Origin: a virus
Lineage: Duplodnaviria; Caudoviricetes
Length of the DNA stretch: 53,449 nt
Strand: one strand, 5' to 3'
IMG/VR virus record: IMGVR_UViG_3300006790_000003
Location: 1 to 53,449 of that record
Shown here: piece after piece, positions 44,080-53,449 of the stretch
Layout of the letters: each line of letters opens with the position of its first letter
Position numbering within the stretch: the first letter of the stretch is position 1
Notes under the pieces: generated by a model
What the model saw: the letters and a program-made list of their open reading frames with translations, nothing else
Told to the model about the DNA's origin: nothing
The model's database searches: none
Position numbers and translations under genes: made by a program

Positions 44080-44112
44080 CAGTAGCTAGTGTCTGAATAA
44101 GATTCGGGGTTT

Positions 44113-44160
44113 AGTGCACCTGGCAACGGAACGCACTTATTTACTTTATTTTATTTATTA
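44113..44160 (+). terminator. GNRA-capped hairpin with T-rich tail
   Basis: AGTGC-AC-CTG-GCAA-CGG-AAC-GCACT, then TATTTACTTTATTTT. Confidence 0.5.
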
Positions 44161-44426
44161 TTATTATCATTCTATTACAGATACAGTACTATTTTAAGTG
44201 ATATGGCATATATACCTTAATATTTTAATCATATGTGATAGATATAGTTTAATATGTAAAGAGAAACACCCTATATACTATAAACTTTTAAGTAAACATG
44301 GGTAAACAACAATAGATTTACACAAATCGCTGAAATACAGCGTTATTATCTCTAAGTGATATGTCGTATTCACATTGATAATATAATGCAACCTATGCAC
44401 ATTCTCGTGCGTAAAAAGGACGAAAA

Positions 44427-44606
44427 ATGAGAATAAATCAAGTTCTTATGATACATAAAATCAATGCAATACTATGTGGTGGTTATATGACACGTGGTAA
44501 AGTAGAGATTATATGTGAACTAATACGAAAACAGAACATTGACGCTTCTAATGAAGACATTGATGTATTGTTACGTACCATAAGTGTTGTAGAAGACTAC
44601 AACTAA
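44427..44606 (+). CDS. Small hypothetical protein (59 aa; not in ORF track)
   Basis: AAGGA SD; MRINQVLMIHKINAILCGG... Confidence 0.6.
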   Translation: MRINQVLMIHKINAILCGGYMTRGKVEIICELIRKQNIDASNEDIDVLLRTISVVEDYN

Positions 44607-44609
44607 AAT

Positions 44610-45200
44610 TACCATTATAGTATGGCAACGATGTAGAGATGAGGATTAGTCCCCTTGTCTCTATATCATATAATTTGGTGGAATTATGCCTCTTGTGGGC
44701 GACCGTAAACTACGTGGTTAATCCAGGAAAGTAGTTGAAACGTGACCAGTCTTATATAGTATTATCTATTTCGATATGCATAGTAGATAGTCATTTACAA
44801 TCACGGTATGTATAAGATGAATGAAATATTTGCACAAATCGGTTATATAAATCCAGGCATCAATGCATAATGAAACCAATAAGTTTTTTTTCTCGTAGTA
44901 AGGACCTTTATCGTTCATTACCTCGTTCCTTTGGTTATGTTGTTTATCAATTAGGTTGGTAGAGGTCCAAAAATTATTAAAATACGGCTATATAAGTGGA
45001 TAATAATGTAACACCGCACATAATCCACCTTGAGGCAATTGGATATCAAAAGTATATCTGAGTAGTTAGGCAATGGTTAAATGACTGAGCAAACCTATGC
45101 TAATCAAGATACCGAACAAAGATAAGCGCAGGTGTATCTTAAGTGGTATTGTAGGGGGATAGCTTCCCAATGCGTAATCCTACTATAGACGTATTTTAAT
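44610..45200 (+). ncRNA. Candidate structured ncRNA cluster I
   Basis: No ORF of 60 aa or more; nested stems 44630-44667, 44675-44879, 44902-44968 and 44976-45200, with G-U pairs favouring the + strand. Confidence 0.6.
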
Positions 45201-45233
45201 ATCTTTAATCAAGTAAACAGAAAGTAGGTAGTT

Positions 45234-45857
45234 ATGAATATTAAAAAATGGGAGTACAAGCAACGTCAAGCTCCAAATAAACAATCGTTGCATTATAGGA
45301 ACTTTATGAAACAATATAGAGCTTATAATAAATTTATTGCTAAATGGGGTAGATTACCAATGCAAAGTAATAGTTGTAATCGTAGACCTATTGCAGAGCG
45401 TAGATTATATCAATGGGCATCACAGATAAAACATAGAATGCAACAACGTAAACTTCCGCAATGGAAATATAATTTATGTACAAATATTGCTGGTTGGGAA
45501 TGGAATAGACAAAGTAATGTATGGACACAACGTTATTTAGAATGTAAAGCATACATAGAACAATATGGTCATACTCCAACACAAATACGACCAGAACGCT
45601 TTCCAAAAAGAATACATAAAGGAAAGTGGATTTCACCAGTTGATGCACAATTACACACCTTATCTATATGGGTAATGTGTCAACGCAAGAAGTTTAATAA
45701 AGGTGAATTATTACCACAACGATTAAACGCATTAATAGATATTGATTTTGAATTTGAACCACCTATGGGTCGTTCCGTTAGAACTAATGGTATGATAGAT
45801 GGTATGGATACGATGGAAAATATCAATAGAATAGTAGAGGAGAATGATTATGTCTAA
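45234..45857 (+). CDS. Stand-alone tandem helicase-associated (HA) domain protein
   Basis: Two W...Y...YG..P...L..W...Q......L.....L..I.[WF].[WF] units. Confidence 0.8.
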   Translation: MNIKKWEYKQRQAPNKQSLHYRNFMKQYRAYNKFIAKWGRLPMQSNSCNRRPIAERRLYQWASQIKHRMQQRKLPQWKYNLCTNIAGWEWNRQSNVWTQRYLECKAYIEQYGHTPTQIRPERFPKRIHKGKWISPVDAQLHTLSIWVMCQRKKFNKGELLPQRLNALIDIDFEFEPPMGRSVRTNGMIDGMDTMENINRIVEENDYV

Positions 45858-46014
45858 ACCTTATCATCAGTATTATAATGAAATACAACATACTGATAAA
45901 CGTAAAAGTATTGCTGTTCTAAAAGCATATAGAAAATACAGACAAGAAACATTGTTAGGACGTATTGCAATTAGAATGGATAGTTTAATTGATTTGCTAA
46001 GAAGGAGGTCTTAG
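45850..46014 (+). CDS. Small basic hypothetical protein (54 aa; not in ORF track)
   Basis: GAGGAG SD; bridges the flanking genes. Confidence 0.65.
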   Translation: MSKPYHQYYNEIQHTDKRKSIAVLKAYRKYRQETLLGRIAIRMDSLIDLLRRRS

Positions 46015-46015
46015 T

Positions 46016-46546
46016 ATGGGAATGGATTTAGTAGCAAAAAAACCTAAAAATGAGAACTACACGGATTATAGATTTAATGTCTGGGGTTGGAGACCAGTAT
46101 GGGACTATTGTATACAATATGGATGTGAAAAATATATTAAAGATAGAAAGACACCACTTATATCAATAGAAACAGCTCAGAATGGACATTATAATAGTGG
46201 TCATTTAGTCTCAGAAGAAGAAGCAAAGAAATTAGCTGAAATGATTAAAGAACATCATTTAAATGGCACATTAGATAAACATCACGCTGGTATACAAGCT
46301 GGGATAGAAGAAGCAAAATTATTTAATGCTGAGTTAGAAAAGAGATTAGCATCTTTAAAGAAACAAGCAGAGAAAGAAGCTGGTAAATCTGATTTAGCAC
46401 CAATCAATTATCCTGAAACATATAAAAAGAGATATGATGAGCTTGTTGAAACTCGTGATTGGCGTAGTTATTATCCTTTTCATAGAGAAAAAATGTTAGA
46501 CTTTGCAATATTTATGGAACAATCTGGAGGGTTCGAAATATGGTAA
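46016..46546 (+). CDS. Hypothetical phage protein
   Basis: AAGGAGG SD; MGMDL...NVWGWRP...SGGFEIW. Confidence 0.8.
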   Translation: MGMDLVAKKPKNENYTDYRFNVWGWRPVWDYCIQYGCEKYIKDRKTPLISIETAQNGHYNSGHLVSEEEAKKLAEMIKEHHLNGTLDKHHAGIQAGIEEAKLFNAELEKRLASLKKQAEKEAGKSDLAPINYPETYKKRYDELVETRDWRSYYPFHREKMLDFAIFMEQSGGFEIW

Positions 46547-46809
46547 ATAAAAACAGCCAAAAATACCGCATCTTAAAGCACTTAAAAAGACATAGACGCA
46601 TCACATCAATGGAAGCGTTTACAAAATTTAATGCTACAAGACTTAGCGGTATTATATACAATCTTAGAGATGATGGGTTTATCATTAATACAGAACGTAT
46701 TGTAAAAAATGGAAAATCATTTGGACGATATTATCTGATTGAAAATGATACAAACGAATCGTTGTTAACTCAATATTTCTTACAAGATTGGGCAGTAATT
46801 AATGGTTAG
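46540..46809 (+). CDS. Winged helix-turn-helix protein
   Basis: SQ..RIL.HL...ITS.EA....RL...I..LR..G..I.T pattern. Confidence 0.8.
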   Translation: MVNKNSQKYRILKHLKRHRRITSMEAFTKFNATRLSGIIYNLRDDGFIINTERIVKNGKSFGRYYLIENDTNESLLTQYFLQDWAVING

Positions 46810-46821
46810 CACTCTACTTGT

Positions 46822-46839
46822 TTTACTTGGTGCGTAAAC
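46822..46839. repeat. Inverted copy of the 3721 dyad element
   Basis: TTTACTTGGTGCGTAAAC. Confidence 0.85.
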
Positions 46840-46840
46840 A

Positions 46841-46882
46841 AAAGGTTGAGGTGTATTCCTTGTGGATATGCCTTGACTTTTT
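46841..46882 (+). terminator. Intrinsic terminator overlapping the next promoter
   Basis: AAAGGTTGAGGTGTATTC/GGATATGCCTTGACTTTT stem followed by a T-run. Confidence 0.65.
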
Positions 46883-46901
46883 CTATTGATATTACTATAT
46901 T
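46873..46901 (+). promoter_or_regulatory. Sigma70-type promoter of the recombination/replication operon
   Basis: TTGACT-N17-TATATT, then GGGAGG and ATG 46925. Confidence 0.75.
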
Positions 46902-46924
46902 TAGAGACATTTCAGGGAGGAAAT

Positions 46925-47674
46925 ATGATAGATATTCCAAAGATATATAACGATTATCTACAACAAAAAAACAAAGAAAATCGTAAAAAGTACAAAGATT
47001 ACCAAGAGTGGTTTAGTGCTAGTAGCGCAGGTAGTTGTTATAGAAAGCAGTTGCATAGGCAACAAGATTTAACGCTAGAACCTTTAGAAGAAAAGAGTGC
47101 AAGACTTTTAAGATTAGGAACTTTAGTACACGCAGACTTTGAACAAGCATTAAAAGATTGGGACATACAAGAACACGTAGATAAACCTGATGAGATACAA
47201 GTATTTACAGAACATAGAATAGAAATACCTGAACTCAATGTAATGGGTCATTTAGATATTGGTGTTGTCAATCGTGAAGGTGAAATGATACACGTATATG
47301 ATATTAAAACCGCAGGTGCTTGGAAATGGCGTATGAAGTTTGGTAGAAATCCAGACAAAAGTCCTAGTACAAATTATGAGTTACAGTTAGCTACATATGC
47401 TATAGGACTAGGAAACCAAGAAGATATAACTGATGTGAGATTATCAATTATGTGGTATAACAAAGATAATTCACAAATGAAAGAAGAGCCAATTTCTAAT
47501 ATGTATATGGAAGCGGCGTTTGATTATTGGACAGATTTGAATGAAACAAGCGATAATGTGAAAGGTGAAGCAGAAATGTTAAACCCTGGAAGTGAAAATG
47601 TTCCTGTATATAAGTGGGAATGTAAGTATTGTGAATTTCAAGGTAAATATTGTCCTGGATTATATAACATTTAA
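46925..47674 (+). CDS. Cas4-like PD-(D/E)xK exonuclease
   Basis: S...C.R, G...H, E, GHLD, DIKT, QL..Y, C..C.F...C (Fe-S cysteines). Confidence 0.88.
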   Translation: MIDIPKIYNDYLQQKNKENRKKYKDYQEWFSASSAGSCYRKQLHRQQDLTLEPLEEKSARLLRLGTLVHADFEQALKDWDIQEHVDKPDEIQVFTEHRIEIPELNVMGHLDIGVVNREGEMIHVYDIKTAGAWKWRMKFGRNPDKSPSTNYELQLATYAIGLGNQEDITDVRLSIMWYNKDNSQMKEEPISNMYMEAAFDYWTDLNETSDNVKGEAEMLNPGSENVPVYKWECKYCEFQGKYCPGLYNI

Positions 47675-47696
47675 ACACTAGAAAGGAGGAAATCTA

Positions 47697-47945
47697 GTGA
47701 TAGAAGGTGAAACACAAGAATGTGTTATTTGTAATCAAGACATAGATAAGCAAATCTTAACAAGATATAACCCAATTACAGATACTGAAGTAAGAGATGT
47801 ATATTGGACGGAGGGACATAACGCTGAACCAGTTAAAAAAGGTAGATGTTGCACACATTGTAATAATACAGTAGTAATACCTACACGACTGGCACAGTTA
47901 CTTCCTGAGAATGCTTTAGATGCGGAGATTAGAAATGACGCTTGA
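47697..47945 (+). CDS. Zn-binding small protein, paralog 1
   Basis: CVIC...GHNAEPVKKGRCCTHCN..V.PTRL; GTG start with AAGGAGG. Confidence 0.75.
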   Translation: MIEGETQECVICNQDIDKQILTRYNPITDTEVRDVYWTEGHNAEPVKKGRCCTHCNNTVVIPTRLAQLLPENALDAEIRNDA

Positions 47946-48138
47946 TACATATAAAAACCCTAAGAATTGTTGTCTTTGTGGAGAGAAATTAGGAAACCCT
48001 TATGGATTCAATGCAGAGCCAATAAAAAATGGAAGATGCTGTGCAGTATGTAATTACCAAGCAGTATTACCAACACGATTAAAACTATTTGTAAACGAAA
48101 TAAAGAAAGAAGGTAAACACGATGGCGAACGTAAATAG
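47935..48138 (+). CDS. Zn-binding small protein, paralog 2
   Basis: CCLC...GFNAEPIKNGRCCAVCN..V.PTRL. Confidence 0.75.
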   Translation: MTLDTYKNPKNCCLCGEKLGNPYGFNAEPIKNGRCCAVCNYQAVLPTRLKLFVNEIKKEGKHDGERK

Positions 48139-48331
48139 TAAAACTTTTGGAGATGTAGTTGTTTATGAAAGTGAATGGCGTTCATTTCTAGAAGTGCAGA
48201 AGTCTGGAAATCATAATATGATGAGTCCAGCAGCTAGAGTAGAGGGAGGTTGCGACAAAGAAACTTGGTTTGCAATGCTATCTAATTATGAAACACTTGA
48301 AAAAGAATGGGGTAACGATGAAACAGAATAA
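48122..48331 (+). CDS. Hypothetical phage protein
   Basis: VQKSG.HNM...NY..L motif, operon packing. Confidence 0.7.
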   Translation: MANVNSKTFGDVVVYESEWRSFLEVQKSGNHNMMSPAARVEGGCDKETWFAMLSNYETLEKEWGNDETE

Positions 48332-48893
48332 CGTATTTGAAGTACTAAGTAAAATAGACGTCAAAGAACACATTGAGAAGAAAGGTAATTTTAGCTATCT
48401 TTCTTGGGCTTGGGCTGTGAGAGTATTATTAGAAAACTTTCCTCAAGCTACTTGGGAAGTACATACTTATTTTGATAATGGTGTAGAAACACCTTATATG
48501 CGTACTGAAGCTGGTGCATTTGTACAAGTAACAGTAAGTATAGAAGAAGTACGAAGAACTCAAGTACACCCAGTATTAGACCATACAAACAAAACTGTAT
48601 TAGAACCTAATGCTTTTCAAATAAACACAGCAATACAACGTTGTTTAGCAAAAGCAATAGCACTACACGGATTAGGATTGTATATCTATGCTGGTGAAGA
48701 TTTGCCAACAGCTCCTGATAAATTAAATAAAGAGCAATATGAATCTATCTTTGGATTGTTAAAAGTAATTGACGATAAAGAGTTAGAGGCAAAAGTAATC
48801 GAACAAATTGGTGATGAAACTATCAATGATGCTAACTTTAAAGCGGCGTATGCAAAACTAAAACGCAAAGCTGATAAGGTAGGTGCAAAATGA
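48318..48893 (+). CDS. sak: Sak (Rad52-like) single-strand annealing protein
   Basis: EKKGNFSYLSWAWA...PVLD...INTAIQRCLAKAIALHGLGLYIYAGEDLP. Confidence 0.92.
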   Translation: MKQNNVFEVLSKIDVKEHIEKKGNFSYLSWAWAVRVLLENFPQATWEVHTYFDNGVETPYMRTEAGAFVQVTVSIEEVRRTQVHPVLDHTNKTVLEPNAFQINTAIQRCLAKAIALHGLGLYIYAGEDLPTAPDKLNKEQYESIFGLLKVIDDKELEAKVIEQIGDETINDANFKAAYAKLKRKADKVGAK

Positions 48894-49150
48894 AGTTAGA
48901 AGAAATCAACAATACAGACGATTATAGAGATGATGTATATAAAGTAAACGCTAAATACACAATAGGTGTGAATGATGGTAAAGAATTTCGTGAAGCTACC
49001 TTTACTGGTACAAAGCTATATCACGGAAAACCAATAATGACATTTGTAATGTGGGGTGGTACACGTAATGGTCATCTAAACTTGAATATTAACCAAAGCT
49101 ATCTATCTTATGCGATAGAAGAGCCAATGGAGGTAGAACAAGATGGGTAA
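48890..49150 (+). CDS. Hypothetical protein
   Basis: ATGA coupling. Confidence 0.7.
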   Translation: MKLEEINNTDDYRDDVYKVNAKYTIGVNDGKEFREATFTGTKLYHGKPIMTFVMWGGTRNGHLNLNINQSYLSYAIEEPMEVEQDG

Positions 49151-49421
49151 ATTTACTCGTGAAGACGCAAAAGCAATGCTAGATGCTGGGAAAATAGACC
49201 AAGAAACTTTTGACGAAATGGAAAAAGATGGTGCATTTTCTAATTCTAGAAGAAGTACAACACGCTTTATTCAAACAGCAGATGGAACTTGGGTTTCTCC
49301 AAGACTCTATTTTGATGGATTAGGTAAAGCACAATACAGCGATAAAATGCTTGAATTGAAAACAAAGGTAAATTCTTTATTTCAAGAATATACCACAACG
49401 GAAACTGGAGACACTAAATGA
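49143..49421 (+). CDS. Hypothetical protein with N-terminal SHOCT-like motif
   Basis: AKAMLDAGKIDQETFDEM; GGAGG SD. Confidence 0.7.
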   Translation: MGKFTREDAKAMLDAGKIDQETFDEMEKDGAFSNSRRSTTRFIQTADGTWVSPRLYFDGLGKAQYSDKMLELKTKVNSLFQEYTTTETGDTK

Positions 49422-49984
49422 AACCGATAGAAAATGCGATATACAATGAAAGTAAAAACACATATAAACCAATACCTGAAGGTACATATCCAGCTCATAT
49501 TAACAAGTTTGAGTCAAAAGAATATAATGGTGCATATGTATTTAATATCACTTTTAAAGTAGCAGAAGAAGCCAAGGATATTGAGTTTGCTGAACAGCAG
49601 AAAGATAACAATGGTAAATTAGTACCAACAGGTGCTAGTGTTACTGGGAAACAAGCTGTAGGCAAGGAATATCGTACTGATAAAGGTATATGGTTAACAC
49701 CAAACTTATCTGAAGAAGATTCTTGGAAGAACAAACGTTATGCTGAGTTCTTTGCAAGTATTGGTATGGCTTTTGGAACAGACAAAGAGGGTAATACTCA
49801 ATTACAAATGGTTGAAGAAGCTGATGTAATGGGATTGCCTTGTTTAGTGGAATTGGTAAATACTGAGTTTAAAAATCAAGAAGGTGAAACTCGTTCATCA
49901 CTTAAAGTAGGTAAAGTACATAAGTGGGAAGACGGAGAACGCATTAGTTCTGATGAATTAGAAGCAGACGATTTACCATTTTAA
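49418..49984 (+). CDS. Phage ssDNA-binding protein (OB-fold, DUF669-like)
   Basis: PIPEGTY.A.I N-terminus, acidic EADDLPF tail, downstream of Sak. Confidence 0.8.
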   Translation: MKPIENAIYNESKNTYKPIPEGTYPAHINKFESKEYNGAYVFNITFKVAEEAKDIEFAEQQKDNNGKLVPTGASVTGKQAVGKEYRTDKGIWLTPNLSEEDSWKNKRYAEFFASIGMAFGTDKEGNTQLQMVEEADVMGLPCLVELVNTEFKNQEGETRSSLKVGKVHKWEDGERISSDELEADDLPF

Positions 49985-49997
49985 ATCACCAGACAGC

Positions 49998-50045
49998 GGG
50001 GTAGATGAATTAAACCTAACCAGGTTATCTTCATATTTCTACCCC
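49998..50045 (+). terminator. Stem-loop after the SSB gene
   Basis: GGGGTAGA/TCTACCCC closing stem; weak U-tail. Confidence 0.45.
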
Positions 50046-50062
50046 AAGTCTAATTTAGGACT

Positions 50063-50090
50063 TTGTTTCCTGAAAATTATTTTGTATATT
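50063..50090 (+). promoter_or_regulatory. Possible sigma70-type promoter
   Basis: TTGTTT-N16-TATATT. Confidence 0.4.
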
Positions 50091-50092
50091 AT

Positions 50093-50169
50093 ATGAGGGC
50101 TCACGTATTGAGATTAACCAGGATATTCCTGGTCATGTGAATACAGGTATGGCTACTTAGAGCTCTCGT
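50093..50169 (+). ncRNA. Candidate three-way-junction leader RNA
   Basis: ATGAGGGCTC/GAGCTCTCGT closing stem; ACCAGG/CCTGGT inner stem. Confidence 0.45.
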
Positions 50170-50185
50170 ATAATAAGGAGGAATC

Positions 50186-50365
50186 ATGGATAAACTTAAA
50201 CAAGCACAAGAATTGTTGCGTCTTGGTACTGTTTGGAATAAAATTATTGAAGAAATAAAAAACACTTTAGAAATTGGTTCCAGCGAAAAAGACATTATAG
50301 ATGATATTGTGCAAAGAACTTGGGCTGAGGAAAAAGAAAATGAACGAAGCAGTAATAACAATTAA
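50186..50365 (+). CDS. Small hypothetical protein (59 aa; not in ORF track)
   Basis: AAGGAGG SD; MDKLKQAQELLRLGTVW... Confidence 0.75.
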   Translation: MDKLKQAQELLRLGTVWNKIIEEIKNTLEIGSSEKDIIDDIVQRTWAEEKENERSSNNN

Positions 50366-50591
50366 ATTAAGTGATAGCGAAGTAAACTTACTTAGCGAAT
50401 GCTTATCAAACACTACATTAAACGGAAAACACGAACAACCAATTAAAAAATTAACCAAAGACTTTCAAACAATTCAAGAACTTGTTTCAACAGAAAGAAG
50501 AAAAAAGAATTTGTTAGAAAGCAGAAAAGGATTAGTAGAAAATATGGATTTATCTACTGTAAATCCTAATTGTGAGGTATGCGATGACTGA
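50340..50591 (+). CDS. Hypothetical protein
   Basis: Start moved to MNEAV; C-terminal CEVC. Confidence 0.7.
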   Translation: MNEAVITIKLSDSEVNLLSECLSNTTLNGKHEQPIKKLTKDFQTIQELVSTERRKKNLLESRKGLVENMDLSTVNPNCEVCDD

Positions 50592-50811
50592 ATGGAAAGC
50601 AGTTCCAAAGAAAGGATTTGTACACTTACACACTTTAGATATAGGTAATAAATTTGAAGTCAATGGCTTAACTGCTATGCTAGTTAATAAAGGAATTAAT
50701 TGCGATGTAGTTATTCTTGAAAAGAGTGATTGCGAATGGCATAGAAATTATGAATCTTATTATAGCGGTAAACAAACGTGGGCTAGTAAGACTGAAGTGA
50801 AACCATTATGA
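50584..50811 (+). CDS. Hypothetical protein
   Basis: GAGGT SD before MTEWK. Confidence 0.7.
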   Translation: MTEWKAVPKKGFVHLHTLDIGNKFEVNGLTAMLVNKGINCDVVILEKSDCEWHRNYESYYSGKQTWASKTEVKPL

Positions 50812-51230
50812 AGTGTGAATGTTGTGGACATATTAACGGAAGAAAATATAATCCACAAAGAAGAATTATCGAACTAATAGAAGCAAGAGAGCATAACAAT
50901 AAATTGAAAGATGTAATACGCTTAATTAGAAAAGAGATACCTTCTGATAAAGATAACCAAAAAACATTTTATTTCTTACAGGCAATATCAAAGATACCTG
51001 ATGATGCAGTTGAAAAGGTTATACATAATTATGTAACAGATGAACACGTATATCAAGGTAAAGGTTTTGCTTATTTGCAACGAATGATTATTGATGGATA
51101 CGCAAATAGAAGTAAAATGATAGAAAACGAAATTAAAAAGTTTGGTAGAACACCAAAAAAAGTGAAAGTAGAAAGAGGAGAGTATAAAAATGTCTATAGT
51201 AGCAATGGAGGAAACCCTATTTCCAGTTAA
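50808..51230 (+). CDS. Hypothetical protein, possibly a DnaD-like replication organiser
   Basis: Helical ...KGFAYLQRMI segment loosely resembles the DnaD YxxxI motif; function is speculative. Confidence 0.5.
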   Translation: MKCECCGHINGRKYNPQRRIIELIEAREHNNKLKDVIRLIRKEIPSDKDNQKTFYFLQAISKIPDDAVEKVIHNYVTDEHVYQGKGFAYLQRMIIDGYANRSKMIENEIKKFGRTPKKVKVERGEYKNVYSSNGGNPISS

Positions 51231-51975
51231 AGAAGTTCCAGCGACATTTATGAAAGCTGAAGGAAAGAAAAGAACTTTAGTAACTGGTACAGGTCATAAA
51301 TTCATCATAAGAGAAGATACAGGAGATGTATTGTCTTGTATGACTGAAGAATATAAAGTTGTTGATAATAGGTCAGTTGTCAGCAAAGTTCAAAAAGTAT
51401 TAAGAGGTACACAAACAGAACTCGTAGAAGCCAAAACATTTTCTGGTGGACAACGTGCTATCTGGAAGTGGAACTTTCCTAAAACGAAAGTAAAAGTAAA
51501 CAAAGGCGATTTAATTAATCCACAATTGATTGTTTCTAATAGTTATGATGGTAGTACATCAGTAAATATTATGGGTGGTGCATTTAGATTGGTTTGTTTA
51601 AATGGTTTAACTATTGGAAATGTATTGACTACTAAAAAAGCAGTACATAAAAATAGTAACACTAGTATTGACCAATTAGAGAATAATATTTCTCAAACAG
51701 TAGGTATGTTAGTGGAAATCTTTGAAACAGAGTTCCCTAATCTGATTAATACCAAGTTAAAGAAAAGACATATTATTGAAATGAGTAAACTTATGCCAAG
51801 TGTATATCTTGAAGAGTTTACAAGATATGTTTTGAATAACAATATGAATAATTATTGGGATTTGTTAAATGCGGCTACATATGTGTCTACACACTCTACA
51901 AATCGTGATAGAGAATCTGTTCATATTATGGAAAATCAGATATATCCTACAATAACAAAATTAGCAAGAGCGTAG
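51190..51975 (+). CDS. DUF932-family protein
   Basis: R.DTG..L...Y..V.N, NSYDGS, FRLVCLNG, WDL.NA.T. Confidence 0.85.
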   Translation: MSIVAMEETLFPVKEVPATFMKAEGKKRTLVTGTGHKFIIREDTGDVLSCMTEEYKVVDNRSVVSKVQKVLRGTQTELVEAKTFSGGQRAIWKWNFPKTKVKVNKGDLINPQLIVSNSYDGSTSVNIMGGAFRLVCLNGLTIGNVLTTKKAVHKNSNTSIDQLENNISQTVGMLVEIFETEFPNLINTKLKKRHIIEMSKLMPSVYLEEFTRYVLNNNMNNYWDLLNAATYVSTHSTNRDRESVHIMENQIYPTITKLARA

Positions 51976-52488
51976 GTTCCTAAAATGCATAAGGTCCCTG
52001 AGATTAGACCACTTGATAGAGACTGGCTACTGTACAGAAGTCATATAGAGAACGTAGCGTGACCCTCTCTACAAAGTCTATTCTCTTGCTAGTAAAACTA
52101 CAGAAGACGCACATGTAATCATTCCTTGTGATAGTTGAAGCCGATAACTATTTAATACCAGGTACACAAGGTTTTGCCTTATTCTGTAGTAAATTTAGTC
52201 TCACGGGAAGCATAGCAGACCACGTGGACGAAATTAATAAATATATAGTTAAGTCATTGGTAGCCTGAAGCCTAGGCAAATGTATACAGTAAAAAGCTGG
52301 TTGGCGTATACACTTAACTATATAATTGGGCGGTGATGGATTAGCCAGTAGACTCTAGAGTTTATAAGCCGCCTAAAAAATTAAGAATAGCAACAGATAG
52401 GTGAGTCTTACGTAAAGTCCATGGAAACCTATACTAGCTATATAACAGGGTAATATGTAAAGCCGTCACCGTGAGGTATTATTACCCT
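51962..52488 (+). ncRNA. Candidate structured ncRNA cluster II (seven tandem stem-closed modules)
   Basis: Consecutive closing stems up to 13 bp separated by A-rich linkers; no ORF of 60 aa or more. Confidence 0.65.
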
Positions 52489-52505
52489 AAACCTTTGGAG
52501 GAAAT

Positions 52506-52760
52506 ATGAAATTAAATAATAGAGAACAAGCTTGGCAACACAGAAAACAAGACAATGTAATCAAGGAAAGTTTTGAAGATAGACTAAAAAATTTTAAGTC
52601 TGTAGACCCCTGGAGTAAAAAAGCTATTGAAGAACGTGAAGAATTTTACAAAAAATTTGGAAGAGGTTGGTGGATATTTTGCGGAGTATCAGTAGTGGAA
52701 AAATATGAAAATGTATGGATTAATCAGTATAGAATACTAGATGGAGAATTAAATGAATGA
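52506..52760 (+). CDS. Hypothetical protein
   Basis: GGAGG SD. Confidence 0.75.
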   Translation: MKLNNREQAWQHRKQDNVIKESFEDRLKNFKSVDPWSKKAIEEREEFYKKFGRGWWIFCGVSVVEKYENVWINQYRILDGELNE

Positions 52761-53004
52761 TAGAAACCAATATTTAATTAGAGTATATATGGAATATGGC
52801 ATTGATTGGATATGTAAAAAATGTAAAAAAATGAATGTAAATCAAAGTTCTTGGACAAATGTAAATCATCCACACGAACTTGTAGATTTTGTAGACGATA
52901 GTAGTTATTGGTGTGAAAATTGTAATGAAGAAACTATTGTAATAAAATATGAGGAGAAGAAACATGGGAGTGTGCAAGAAGTTGTTAATAGAACGTATGG
53001 ATAA
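52753..53004 (+). CDS. Zn-ribbon hypothetical protein
   Basis: CKKC...WCENC. Confidence 0.65.
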   Translation: MNDRNQYLIRVYMEYGIDWICKKCKKMNVNQSSWTNVNHPHELVDFVDDSSYWCENCNEETIVIKYEEKKHGSVQEVVNRTYG

Positions 53005-53248
53005 CTACAAGTTAAGAGAAGCAGAAGACTTTGAAGACGGAATAGATAAGTATCCTATGCCACATATACCTACAGAAGAAGAAATAGAAGACACTAAACC
53101 AGATAACACTTGGAGTATTAAACACGAAGGACACTTGAACAGAAATAATATAATTTTTCATAATAATAAATATCAAAAACTTTATCAAAAACTTAAAAAA
53201 GTTGACGATAAATTGAAAGAAAGTAGAGGTGAGCAAAATGGAAAATAA
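52964..53248 (+). CDS. Hypothetical protein
   Basis: GAGGAG SD before MGVCK. Confidence 0.65.
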   Translation: MGVCKKLLIERMDNYKLREAEDFEDGIDKYPMPHIPTEEEIEDTKPDNTWSIKHEGHLNRNNIIFHNNKYQKLYQKLKKVDDKLKESRGEQNGK

Positions 53249-53449
53249 AATGGAATTTATATCTATTAAACTAAATTATAGAACAGATGAAAACGGAATT
53301 AGAATATATGATTACGATGAAATGAGAAATCAATTTGAACAGCATATGTTACAATGTGCGGCTAATACGCAAGGTGATTTAGATGGTTGGTCTGATAAAC
53401 AGGCAGATTATGCTATGGATAATATGACTAGTGATTTATATGACCAAGC
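53238..53449 (+). CDS. Hypothetical protein spanning the circular junction (stop at 140-142)
   Basis: GAGGTG SD; MENKMEFISIK...YDQAREVFE* read across the repeat. Confidence 0.8.
   Translation, partial: MENKMEFISIKLNYRTDENGIRIYDYDEMRNQFEQHMLQCAANTQGDLDGWSDKQADYAMDNMTSDLYDQ
53327..53449. repeat. Terminal direct repeat, copy 2
   Basis: Identical to 1-123. Confidence 0.97.

Follow-up and report, generated by a model that had tools for sequence, protein, structure and literature searches.

The window analyzed here, the whole 53,449 bp of IMG/VR virus record IMGVR_UViG_3300006790_000003, is a complete record with a 123-nt terminal repeat from an uncultured marine phage, whose terminase is <25% identical to its counterpart in every cultured phage of INPHARED. 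Between its DUF932 gene and a following 84-aa open reading frame (ORF) lies a real mosaic array of independent structured RNA modules (M1 to M7; Table 1), not one ROOL/OLE-like RNA. Each of the seven is closed by a stem of its own; as a set they prefer the + strand, come and go independently of one another in related phages, and are conserved well above the neighboring genes. We are highly confident that this modular structure is real and conserved, and consider it probable that the array acts as + strand RNA.

A chain of seven stem-closed modules

An earlier note, made from the letters of the sequence, had proposed seven back-to-back closing stems in the gap. Energy folding of the + strand returns all seven at the positions proposed, both in the whole 551-nt stretch and module by module, and the linkers between modules are indeed short and A-rich. 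On the + strand the whole stretch reaches -142.3 kcal/mol, where shuffles average -126.5 (z = -2.32; 3 of 100 do equally well); on the minus strand z is -1.26. Shuffle-controlled folding, which the same note had named as a check, thus speaks for the gap as a whole at modest strength and module by module less evenly (Table 1): alone, the energy signal is weak to moderate, and by folding energy only the case would stay open. The 5' arm of M1 (51962-51975) is at the same time the end of the DUF932 gene, its last codons reading L-A-R-A-stop.

Table 1. Array modules, neighboring features and modules at other sites (window coordinates unless a locus is named; z against shuffles).
Feature	Position	Strand	Description
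DUF932 gene	51190-51975	+	Pfam PF06067, E = 1.4e-18
Array gap	51976-52505	+ strand genes on both sides	no ORF >=70 aa (ORF list)
M1	51962-52091	+	130 nt; 9-bp closing stem around a small hairpin and a long branched arm; minimum free energy -34.9 kcal/mol, z = -1.83
M2	52097-52190	+	94 nt; 9-bp closing stem; z = -2.63
M3	52194-52236	+	small hairpin, stem 52198-52229; z = -2.34
M4	52242-52324	+	83 nt; 13-bp closing stem around two inner hairpins; z = -2.13
M5	52326-52376	+	51 nt; three-way junction; most widespread module; z = -2.42
M6	52381-52445	+	stem 52387-52441, closing stem degraded in the window; conserved core; z = -0.99
M7	52446-52490	+	45 nt; 9-bp closing stem; z = -2.69
Ribosome-binding site and 84-aa ORF, directly 3' of the array	52494-52760 (ORF 52506-52760)	+	
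Second intergenic site	49997-50176	+	two stem-closed modules: 49997-50047 (z = -4.77) and 50084-50176 (z = -6.25)
Sak-like annealing protein	48270-48893		same gene block as the array
Cas4-like exonuclease	46886-47674		same gene block as the array
D12-class N6-adenine DNA methyltransferase	725-1546		same gene block as the array
M4-like module in L138	~8995-9149 of L138	reverse	alone in one gene gap
Array in L138	~10756-11126 of L138	reverse	370-nt array before an 84-aa ORF homolog; includes an M9 scaffold around three inner hairpins

Related phages carry different subsets in one order

Relatives were gathered by their DUF932 protein (30 viral and 70 metagenome loci). Where that protein is >=74% identical, the gap after its gene measures 115-590 nt and is filled by the seven units of the window together with further units of like style, from which at least 14 families (M1-M14) were defined. 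BLAST with the 544-nt gap of the window matches 27 of 31 loci, in module-sized pieces and in differing combinations: M1 M2 M5 M7 in L002, M1 M5 M7 in L005, M10 M5 in L006, and M1 M10 M3 M4 M5 M8 M6 in L011. Array size runs from one module (L014, L015 and L019, the last with M1 only) to seven, and the order of shared families is identical in all 23 tabulated arrays. The final module before the downstream gene may be M7, M6, M9, M12 or M1; whichever it is, the arrays always stop just before the ribosome-binding site. Homologs of the 84-aa ORF come after the arrays and adjoin DUF932 directly where the array is absent. Of the two structures that the earlier note had offered for the gap, an array of small RNAs fits this independent presence and absence. 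The other, one large multidomain RNA of the ROOL/OLE kind, does not, the modules being gained and lost independently (0-7 per relative) and found singly at other intergenic sites.

Among loci whose DUF932 is 38-51% identical, the gap is <=3 nt in 25 of the 30 with a callable next ORF; BLAST found none of the 14 families in these loci, and the M5 covariance model had no match in the 25 of them that were searched. Run over 48 sources (329 kb) lacking a BLAST match, the same model returned the window's own copy as its sole match. Since distant homologs of DUF932 are thus mostly without gap and without modules, the array is an accessory insertion of one clade rather than a companion of DUF932, and the link between the two is positional only. 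The pattern of the M9 3' arm occurs in 66 viral stretches, mostly by chance; among the new loci 11 rows also carry a word like the 5' arm, and 9 of these (5 distinct sequences) were judged true M9-type hairpins.

Sequence conservation and compensatory change

Divergent relatives share 76-81% of DUF932 nucleotides with the window and are ~60-65% identical at third codon positions (counted where lengths match, four comparison rows spoiled by indels being disregarded); between the same relatives, shared modules are 85-100% identical. Relative to L011, M3 (43/43) and M5 (48/48) are unchanged, with M4, which lies between them, at 85%, and the 43/43 identity of M3 in the L011/L052 lineage stands beside a DUF932 gene that is 78% identical. 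Either constraint differs by module, or exchange proceeds by module. The 7 variants of M2 are 96-99% identical, including one at a second intergenic site in L029.

Pairing is preserved through these changes. In M5, with 9 distinct variants, 162 of 162 cells are paired and 2 pairs show double changes; its 8 variable columns all lie in stems, none of its 15 unpaired columns varies, and four positions hold G-U pairs that would be A-C mismatches on the opposite strand. In M1, pairing holds in 99.3% of cells over 15 variants, and both sides have changed in 3 pairs; its covariation score was reached by 0 of 500 shuffles, and sliding the partners by 1-3 columns leaves 32-48% of cells paired. One covarying helix of M1 (alignment columns 95-99 with 114-118; A-U in 8 variants and G-C in 7) runs across a second predicted one, so that M1 may contain a candidate pseudoknot or two alternative folds. 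Double changes are also visible by eye in M4 (4 variants; T-A to C-G and A-T to G-C), in M7, whose two variants differ by a stem double change from A-T to G-C, and in M8 and M10, and the stem closing the M6 core occurs in U-A, C-G and U-G versions. Covariation in homologs of the interval downstream of DUF932, by which the earlier note would have had its array judged, is therefore present, in the three M1 pairs and two M5 pairs described. So is the generic mark of a structured non-coding RNA, pairs kept via compensatory and G-U changes. Not every family confines its variation to stems: this is true of M5, M8 and M6 and untrue of M1, and with six families pooled variable columns are about equally frequent among paired (54/304) and unpaired (51/225) positions. 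Judged from the alignments, support for the pairing is solid, yet does not amount to statistical proof for each helix.

Nested, moved and rebuilt modules

Modules are not confined to the DUF932 gap: some lie at a second intergenic site, others in phages whose examined stretch lacks a DUF932 gene. In L055 the second site lies ~1.4 kb upstream and holds M1 and M4; this M1 (L055:1023-1150) is complete and retains a remnant of DUF932 coding sequence, while relatives without the array encode the same LARA end of DUF932 by other codons. In L029 the second site holds an M9-like unit and M2. The two modules at the second site of the window have folding scores much stronger than those of the seven array modules, the larger reaching -37.5 kcal/mol on the + strand vs -27.5 on the minus strand. 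A conserved word at this site was considered as a phage promoter and rejected (8 matches vs 7.1 expected). L138, which is read on its reverse strand and has no DUF932 match in the stretch examined, carries single modules in separate gene gaps as well as an array (Table 1).

Units are also taken apart and rebuilt. L006 and L054 have lost the interior of M1, and L023 has another hairpin unit in its place, the closing stem being retained in each. The reverse is seen with the M6 core, which occurs in 13 distinct contexts within at least 4 unrelated closing stems, some of them on contigs without a DUF932 match in the stretch examined. This core holds an 8-nt palindrome, UCCAUGGA (window 52414-52421), which in three of the 13 contexts reads UCUAUAGA and is palindromic again; a single double change underlies the difference. 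The palindrome could reflect pairing of one copy with another, or a site at which a dimeric protein binds the DNA.

This movement of whole stem-bounded units shows that recombination at module borders shapes the locus. Module junctions carry short direct repeats in common; the only direct repeats found are two-copy ones of 10-16 nt. The phage's own recombination system, a Cas4-like exonuclease and a Sak-like annealing protein encoded near the array, might account for the shuffling of modules or may at least assist their exchange. Within the window genome each module is single-copy, the array matching only itself, and in 5 near-complete relatives module matches are likewise confined to one locus.

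Strand and transcription

The + strand gives the more stable fold in 12 of the 14 families (summed family means -264 vs -234 kcal/mol), and the neighboring genes are all on that strand. Neither a + strand promoter-like site nor a terminator-like one turned up in a scan of 51962-52505.

Some bearing on expression comes from public sequencing runs. Twenty contain the array stretch, and 8 of these are metatranscriptomes. In all four metatranscriptomes compared over the 8 kb at 45450-53449, one contig spans M1-M5 (437-676 nt) with zero differences from the window. The word depth of these contigs is 30.7-37.6, vs 2-8.5 for contigs of neighboring genes with one at 23.1 (X5), in a set of assembled contigs that were chosen for containing the array stretch, whose depth cannot rank genes and which show neither strand nor ends. 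The contrast between array and flanks is a weak hint of array RNA. Parts of the 8 kb that no contig covers in these runs are uninformative on expression, and so is the stop of three RNA contigs at 52383, where the variant in the sample continues into M8. At that position the commonest variant sampled in runs X2 and X4 passes from M5 into M8 and not into M6; the combination of a window-type M1-M5 followed by M8 is absent from all assembled loci.

Searches for known families, shared words and targets

The earlier note recognized no known family, and Rfam agrees. Its 4,227 models give no match at gathering score on the window or on 20 related loci; at E up to 10 the interval 51800-52650 yields a single row, a chance snoRNA (E = 8), and at E up to 1 a further 6 loci yield none. 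Among cultured phages (INPHARED), blastn of the gap has no match and the DUF932 protein 3 weak ones, and exact cores of M5, M1 and M8 have 0 matches each in the 185,579 prokaryote genomes of GTDB. A search of the phage genome for antisense targets gave a longest exact complement of 13 nt, at 2 places where about one would be expected by chance (an estimate), both on the + strand where long ORFs run on the minus strand. No description of the array was found in the literature, the supplementary motif lists of the large phage RNA screens (PMC10690425, PMC5737381) lying outside what was covered.

Other features proposed for the array from its sequence hold less well. A protein-binding loop shared by the modules finds no support, in that 16 module sequences (the 14 families and two second-site pieces) share k-mers no more often than their shuffles do. 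The reuse of loop words is supported only in part, the pattern [GT][GA]AAG[CT]C occurring 4 times in the array vs 0.13 expected at the window's rate, but the pattern was picked post hoc and k-mers in general are at chance. The complementarities put forward as cross-module pairs do exist; however, 544 nt would yield ~2 8-mers of this kind by chance (an estimate), and the pairs are not conserved: the modules concerned occur without each other in relatives, and a G-to-A change in the M1 partner (row L036) is uncompensated in M5, whose partner columns are invariant.

Genome context

The array sits in a co-directional + strand gene block that encodes, in addition to the Cas4-like exonuclease and the Sak-like single-strand annealing protein, a DnaB-like helicase and a D12-class DNA methyltransferase. 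Its GC content is ~38%, vs ~28-33% in the flanks.

Three further regions of the window may be mentioned. At the start of the + gene block, 1.15 kb (44080-45233) have no ORFs >=70 aa and are predicted to be hairpin-rich; their conservation in five relatives is patchy, at 69-89% identity over short pieces, and not of the kind found in the array. A 307-nt gap between minus-strand genes (22636-22942) holds a G5/C5 hairpin followed by T-rich sequence and may be a terminator. The structural block includes an ORF of 2,929 aa on the minus strand (6489-15278).

Possible functions of the array

What might such an array do? In the explanation that we prefer, the gap is a chain of seven autonomously folding, stem-closed domains, which would be read as RNA on the + strand and co-transcribed with the replication and recombination (early) gene block of the phage. 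Each domain is a cassette with a conserved family of its own, members of this marine clade carrying differing subsets of at least 14 such families, in fixed order, in the gap flanked by the same gene pair and in a few further intergenic places. The transcript would be cut in the A-rich, single-stranded linkers, and the domains would persist as small stable RNAs, their ends shielded by the closing stems, whose invariant loops would be bound by a host or phage factor: as decoy, sponge or regulator. The array would then be an accessory "RNA island" reshuffled by recombination. Taken as a whole, inferred steps included, this is the best explanation available and comes close to an even bet; that the modules are small RNAs acting in trans is our best guess, held tentatively and with the balance leaning somewhat against it.

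A more specific version is that the island is a recombining library of scaffolded small RNAs, each presenting a conserved recognition core on a replaceable closing stem and neutralizing or hijacking a different host factor, such as an RNA-binding defense protein or an RNA-decay protein. It fits the locus because the same M6 core is found in at least four unrelated stems and because its palindromic loop stays palindromic on change; some modules might pair with copies of themselves. Stated this specifically, the idea is unlikely.

Several observations weigh against the preferred explanation. Folding z-scores are modest, M6 folds no better than shuffles, and for M1 and M3 the minus strand gives a slightly better fold. 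Two close relatives, L049 and L055, are without an array at the DUF932 site, where DUF932 overlaps the start of the 84-aa ORF homolog; the array is dispensable there. The high identity of modules could stem from recent exchange instead of selection, and the covariation comprises few independent events among close relatives. The depth excess in the RNA libraries could arise from co-occurring strains that share conserved modules, or from DNA carry-over, and the contigs themselves reveal neither the strand and ends of an RNA nor where it might be cut. The longest complement to the rest of the genome, at 13 nt, is about what chance would give.

The main rival is that the modules act in cis, as punctuation of a polycistronic early messenger: they would be processing or stability elements, blocking exonucleases or serving as RNase sites, with tandem arrays arising where intervening genes were lost. 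This would explain why modules lie only between co-directional genes, why there is no promoter- or terminator-like site inside the array, why L138 has single modules in separate gene gaps, and why arrays can be dispensed with and always end just short of a ribosome-binding site. What it leaves unexplained is why loops are invariant and why there are so many different families. A stabilizer needs a stem but not fixed loops, and the unpaired columns of M5 do not vary at all while neighboring third codon positions are ~38% diverged; many different families are retained in one gap; and the last module differs among relatives, which leaves the downstream gene without a constant regulator. We regard the cis-acting role as a somewhat unlikely, if serious, alternative.

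Another possibility is that the modules work at the level of DNA and have no RNA function: cassettes, hairpin or cruciform, that serve as hot spots of recombination or are mobile (PeSL- or MITE-like), or single-stranded DNA structures used in replication. Whole stem-bounded units have moved, M1 in L055 with the end codons of DUF932 and M2 with the M9-like unit in L029; interiors have been deleted or replaced within a retained closing stem (L006, L023, L054); junctions share short direct repeats; and the phage encodes both the Sak-like annealing protein and the Cas4-like exonuclease. Mobile units would not be expected, however, to remain single-copy in their own genome and at one locus only in 5 near-complete relatives, and Tandem Repeats Finder detects no tandem repeats. 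A purely DNA-level role is made less likely by the strand asymmetry and the collinear order: G-U asymmetry is unexpected for double-stranded palindromes, though allowed for single-stranded DNA, and an order kept in every one of the 23 arrays is in keeping with deletion and homologous exchange, not with transposition. On balance we consider a role confined to DNA quite unlikely.

One large multidomain non-coding RNA of ~530 nt, folding and acting whole in the size class of ROOL, OLE and GOLLD, would suit the size of the gap, its contiguous domains with no ORF between them, the RNA-library contigs that span several modules and perhaps the M6-core palindromic loop as a mediator of RNA-RNA contacts, but it is very improbable indeed: relatives hold 0-7 modules in many combinations, the large-RNA models of Rfam give no match even when E is allowed to reach 10, and the long-range pairs that were proposed are unconserved and no more than chance would supply. 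The independent presence, movement and nesting of modules exclude one co-folded RNA of 530 nt as the functional unit.

Comparison with known systems

The promoter-early stem-loops (PeSLs) of T4-type phages are small intergenic stem-loop cassettes in plastic regions, where recombination shuffles modules; a PeSL family is repeated within a genome, combines a strong sigma-70 promoter with a terminator hairpin, and flanks small genes (PMC2839356). They are the nearest described phage phenomenon, as small intergenic stem-loop cassettes that recombine among related phages. The array differs in that its modules are distinct single-copy families with conserved interiors, set back to back without genes between them and without a promoter- or terminator-like site. 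We rejected an identification with PeSL cassettes, there being no such + strand site within 51962-52505 and no copies elsewhere in the phage's own genome.

The REP and BIME elements of enterobacteria are mosaic strings of palindromes with short linkers, located between co-transcribed genes and thought to stabilize the upstream mRNA. The array resembles them in its mosaic units, short linkers and position between co-transcribed genes. REP units, however, exist in hundreds of near-identical copies per genome, whereas the modules of the array are unique in theirs, larger (43-130 nt), branched and sequence-constrained in their loops; REP/BIME or MITE-type repeats were rejected, modules being restricted to one place in their own genome and one locus in each of the 5 near-complete relatives. 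The cis-acting reading would set the modules beside such elements, or beside the RNase III sites between T7 early genes.

Individual modules also recall the c4 RNA of P1 and P7 and the CI RNA of P4. These stem-closed, branched RNAs of 50-130 nt form part of a polycistronic early transcript, from which RNases of the host free them, and their loops mediate their action. The likeness is in size, closing stem and place within an early transcript. Rfam holds a C4 family, yet the array has no Rfam match at E up to 10; no complementary target for it was found in the phage genome either (the longest complement being the 13 nt noted above), and it consists of many different modules in tandem.

Intergenic regions of phages and metagenomes are known for clusters of structured RNAs and self-cleaving ribozymes (hammerhead, twister, pistol, hatchet, RAGATH motifs), and ROOL and GOLLD are large phage-linked RNAs. 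With these the array has in common that several unrelated structured motifs are packed into phage intergenic DNA; it differs in that no Rfam model matches it (E up to 10) or the related loci searched. Known self-cleaving ribozymes (hammerhead, twister, twister-sister, pistol, hatchet, HDV-like) were rejected on this ground, and a ROOL/OLE/GOLLD-type RNA for want of both a covariance-model match and a single architecture kept whole in homologs. A tRNA or tmRNA array was also rejected (ARAGORN finds 0 genes in the whole window), as was a CRISPR, solitary-repeat or TIGR-type array, Tandem Repeats Finder returning 0 rows, with no systematic search for Cas or Tas genes made.

Significance

Structured non-coding RNAs in phage intergenic DNA are already known; what is unusual here is the cassette-like, scaffold-plus-core organization. 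If the modules are cis stabilizers or recombination scars, they would account for a class of strongly conserved non-coding islands in marine viromes, which might otherwise pass for genes or for artefacts of assembly. If they are functional RNAs, the locus would contribute no fewer than 14 new families of structured RNA, drawn from marine phages that are abundant but uncultured, with an unusual mode of evolution in which single-copy cassettes are gained, lost, nested and swapped as stem-bounded units in constant order. Do phages deploy batteries of small structured RNAs, beyond proteins and tRNAs, against their hosts? Functional modules would make this locus a place to ask, and a true RNA accessory island would be an RNA counterpart of the protein anti-defense gene islands in phage early regions.

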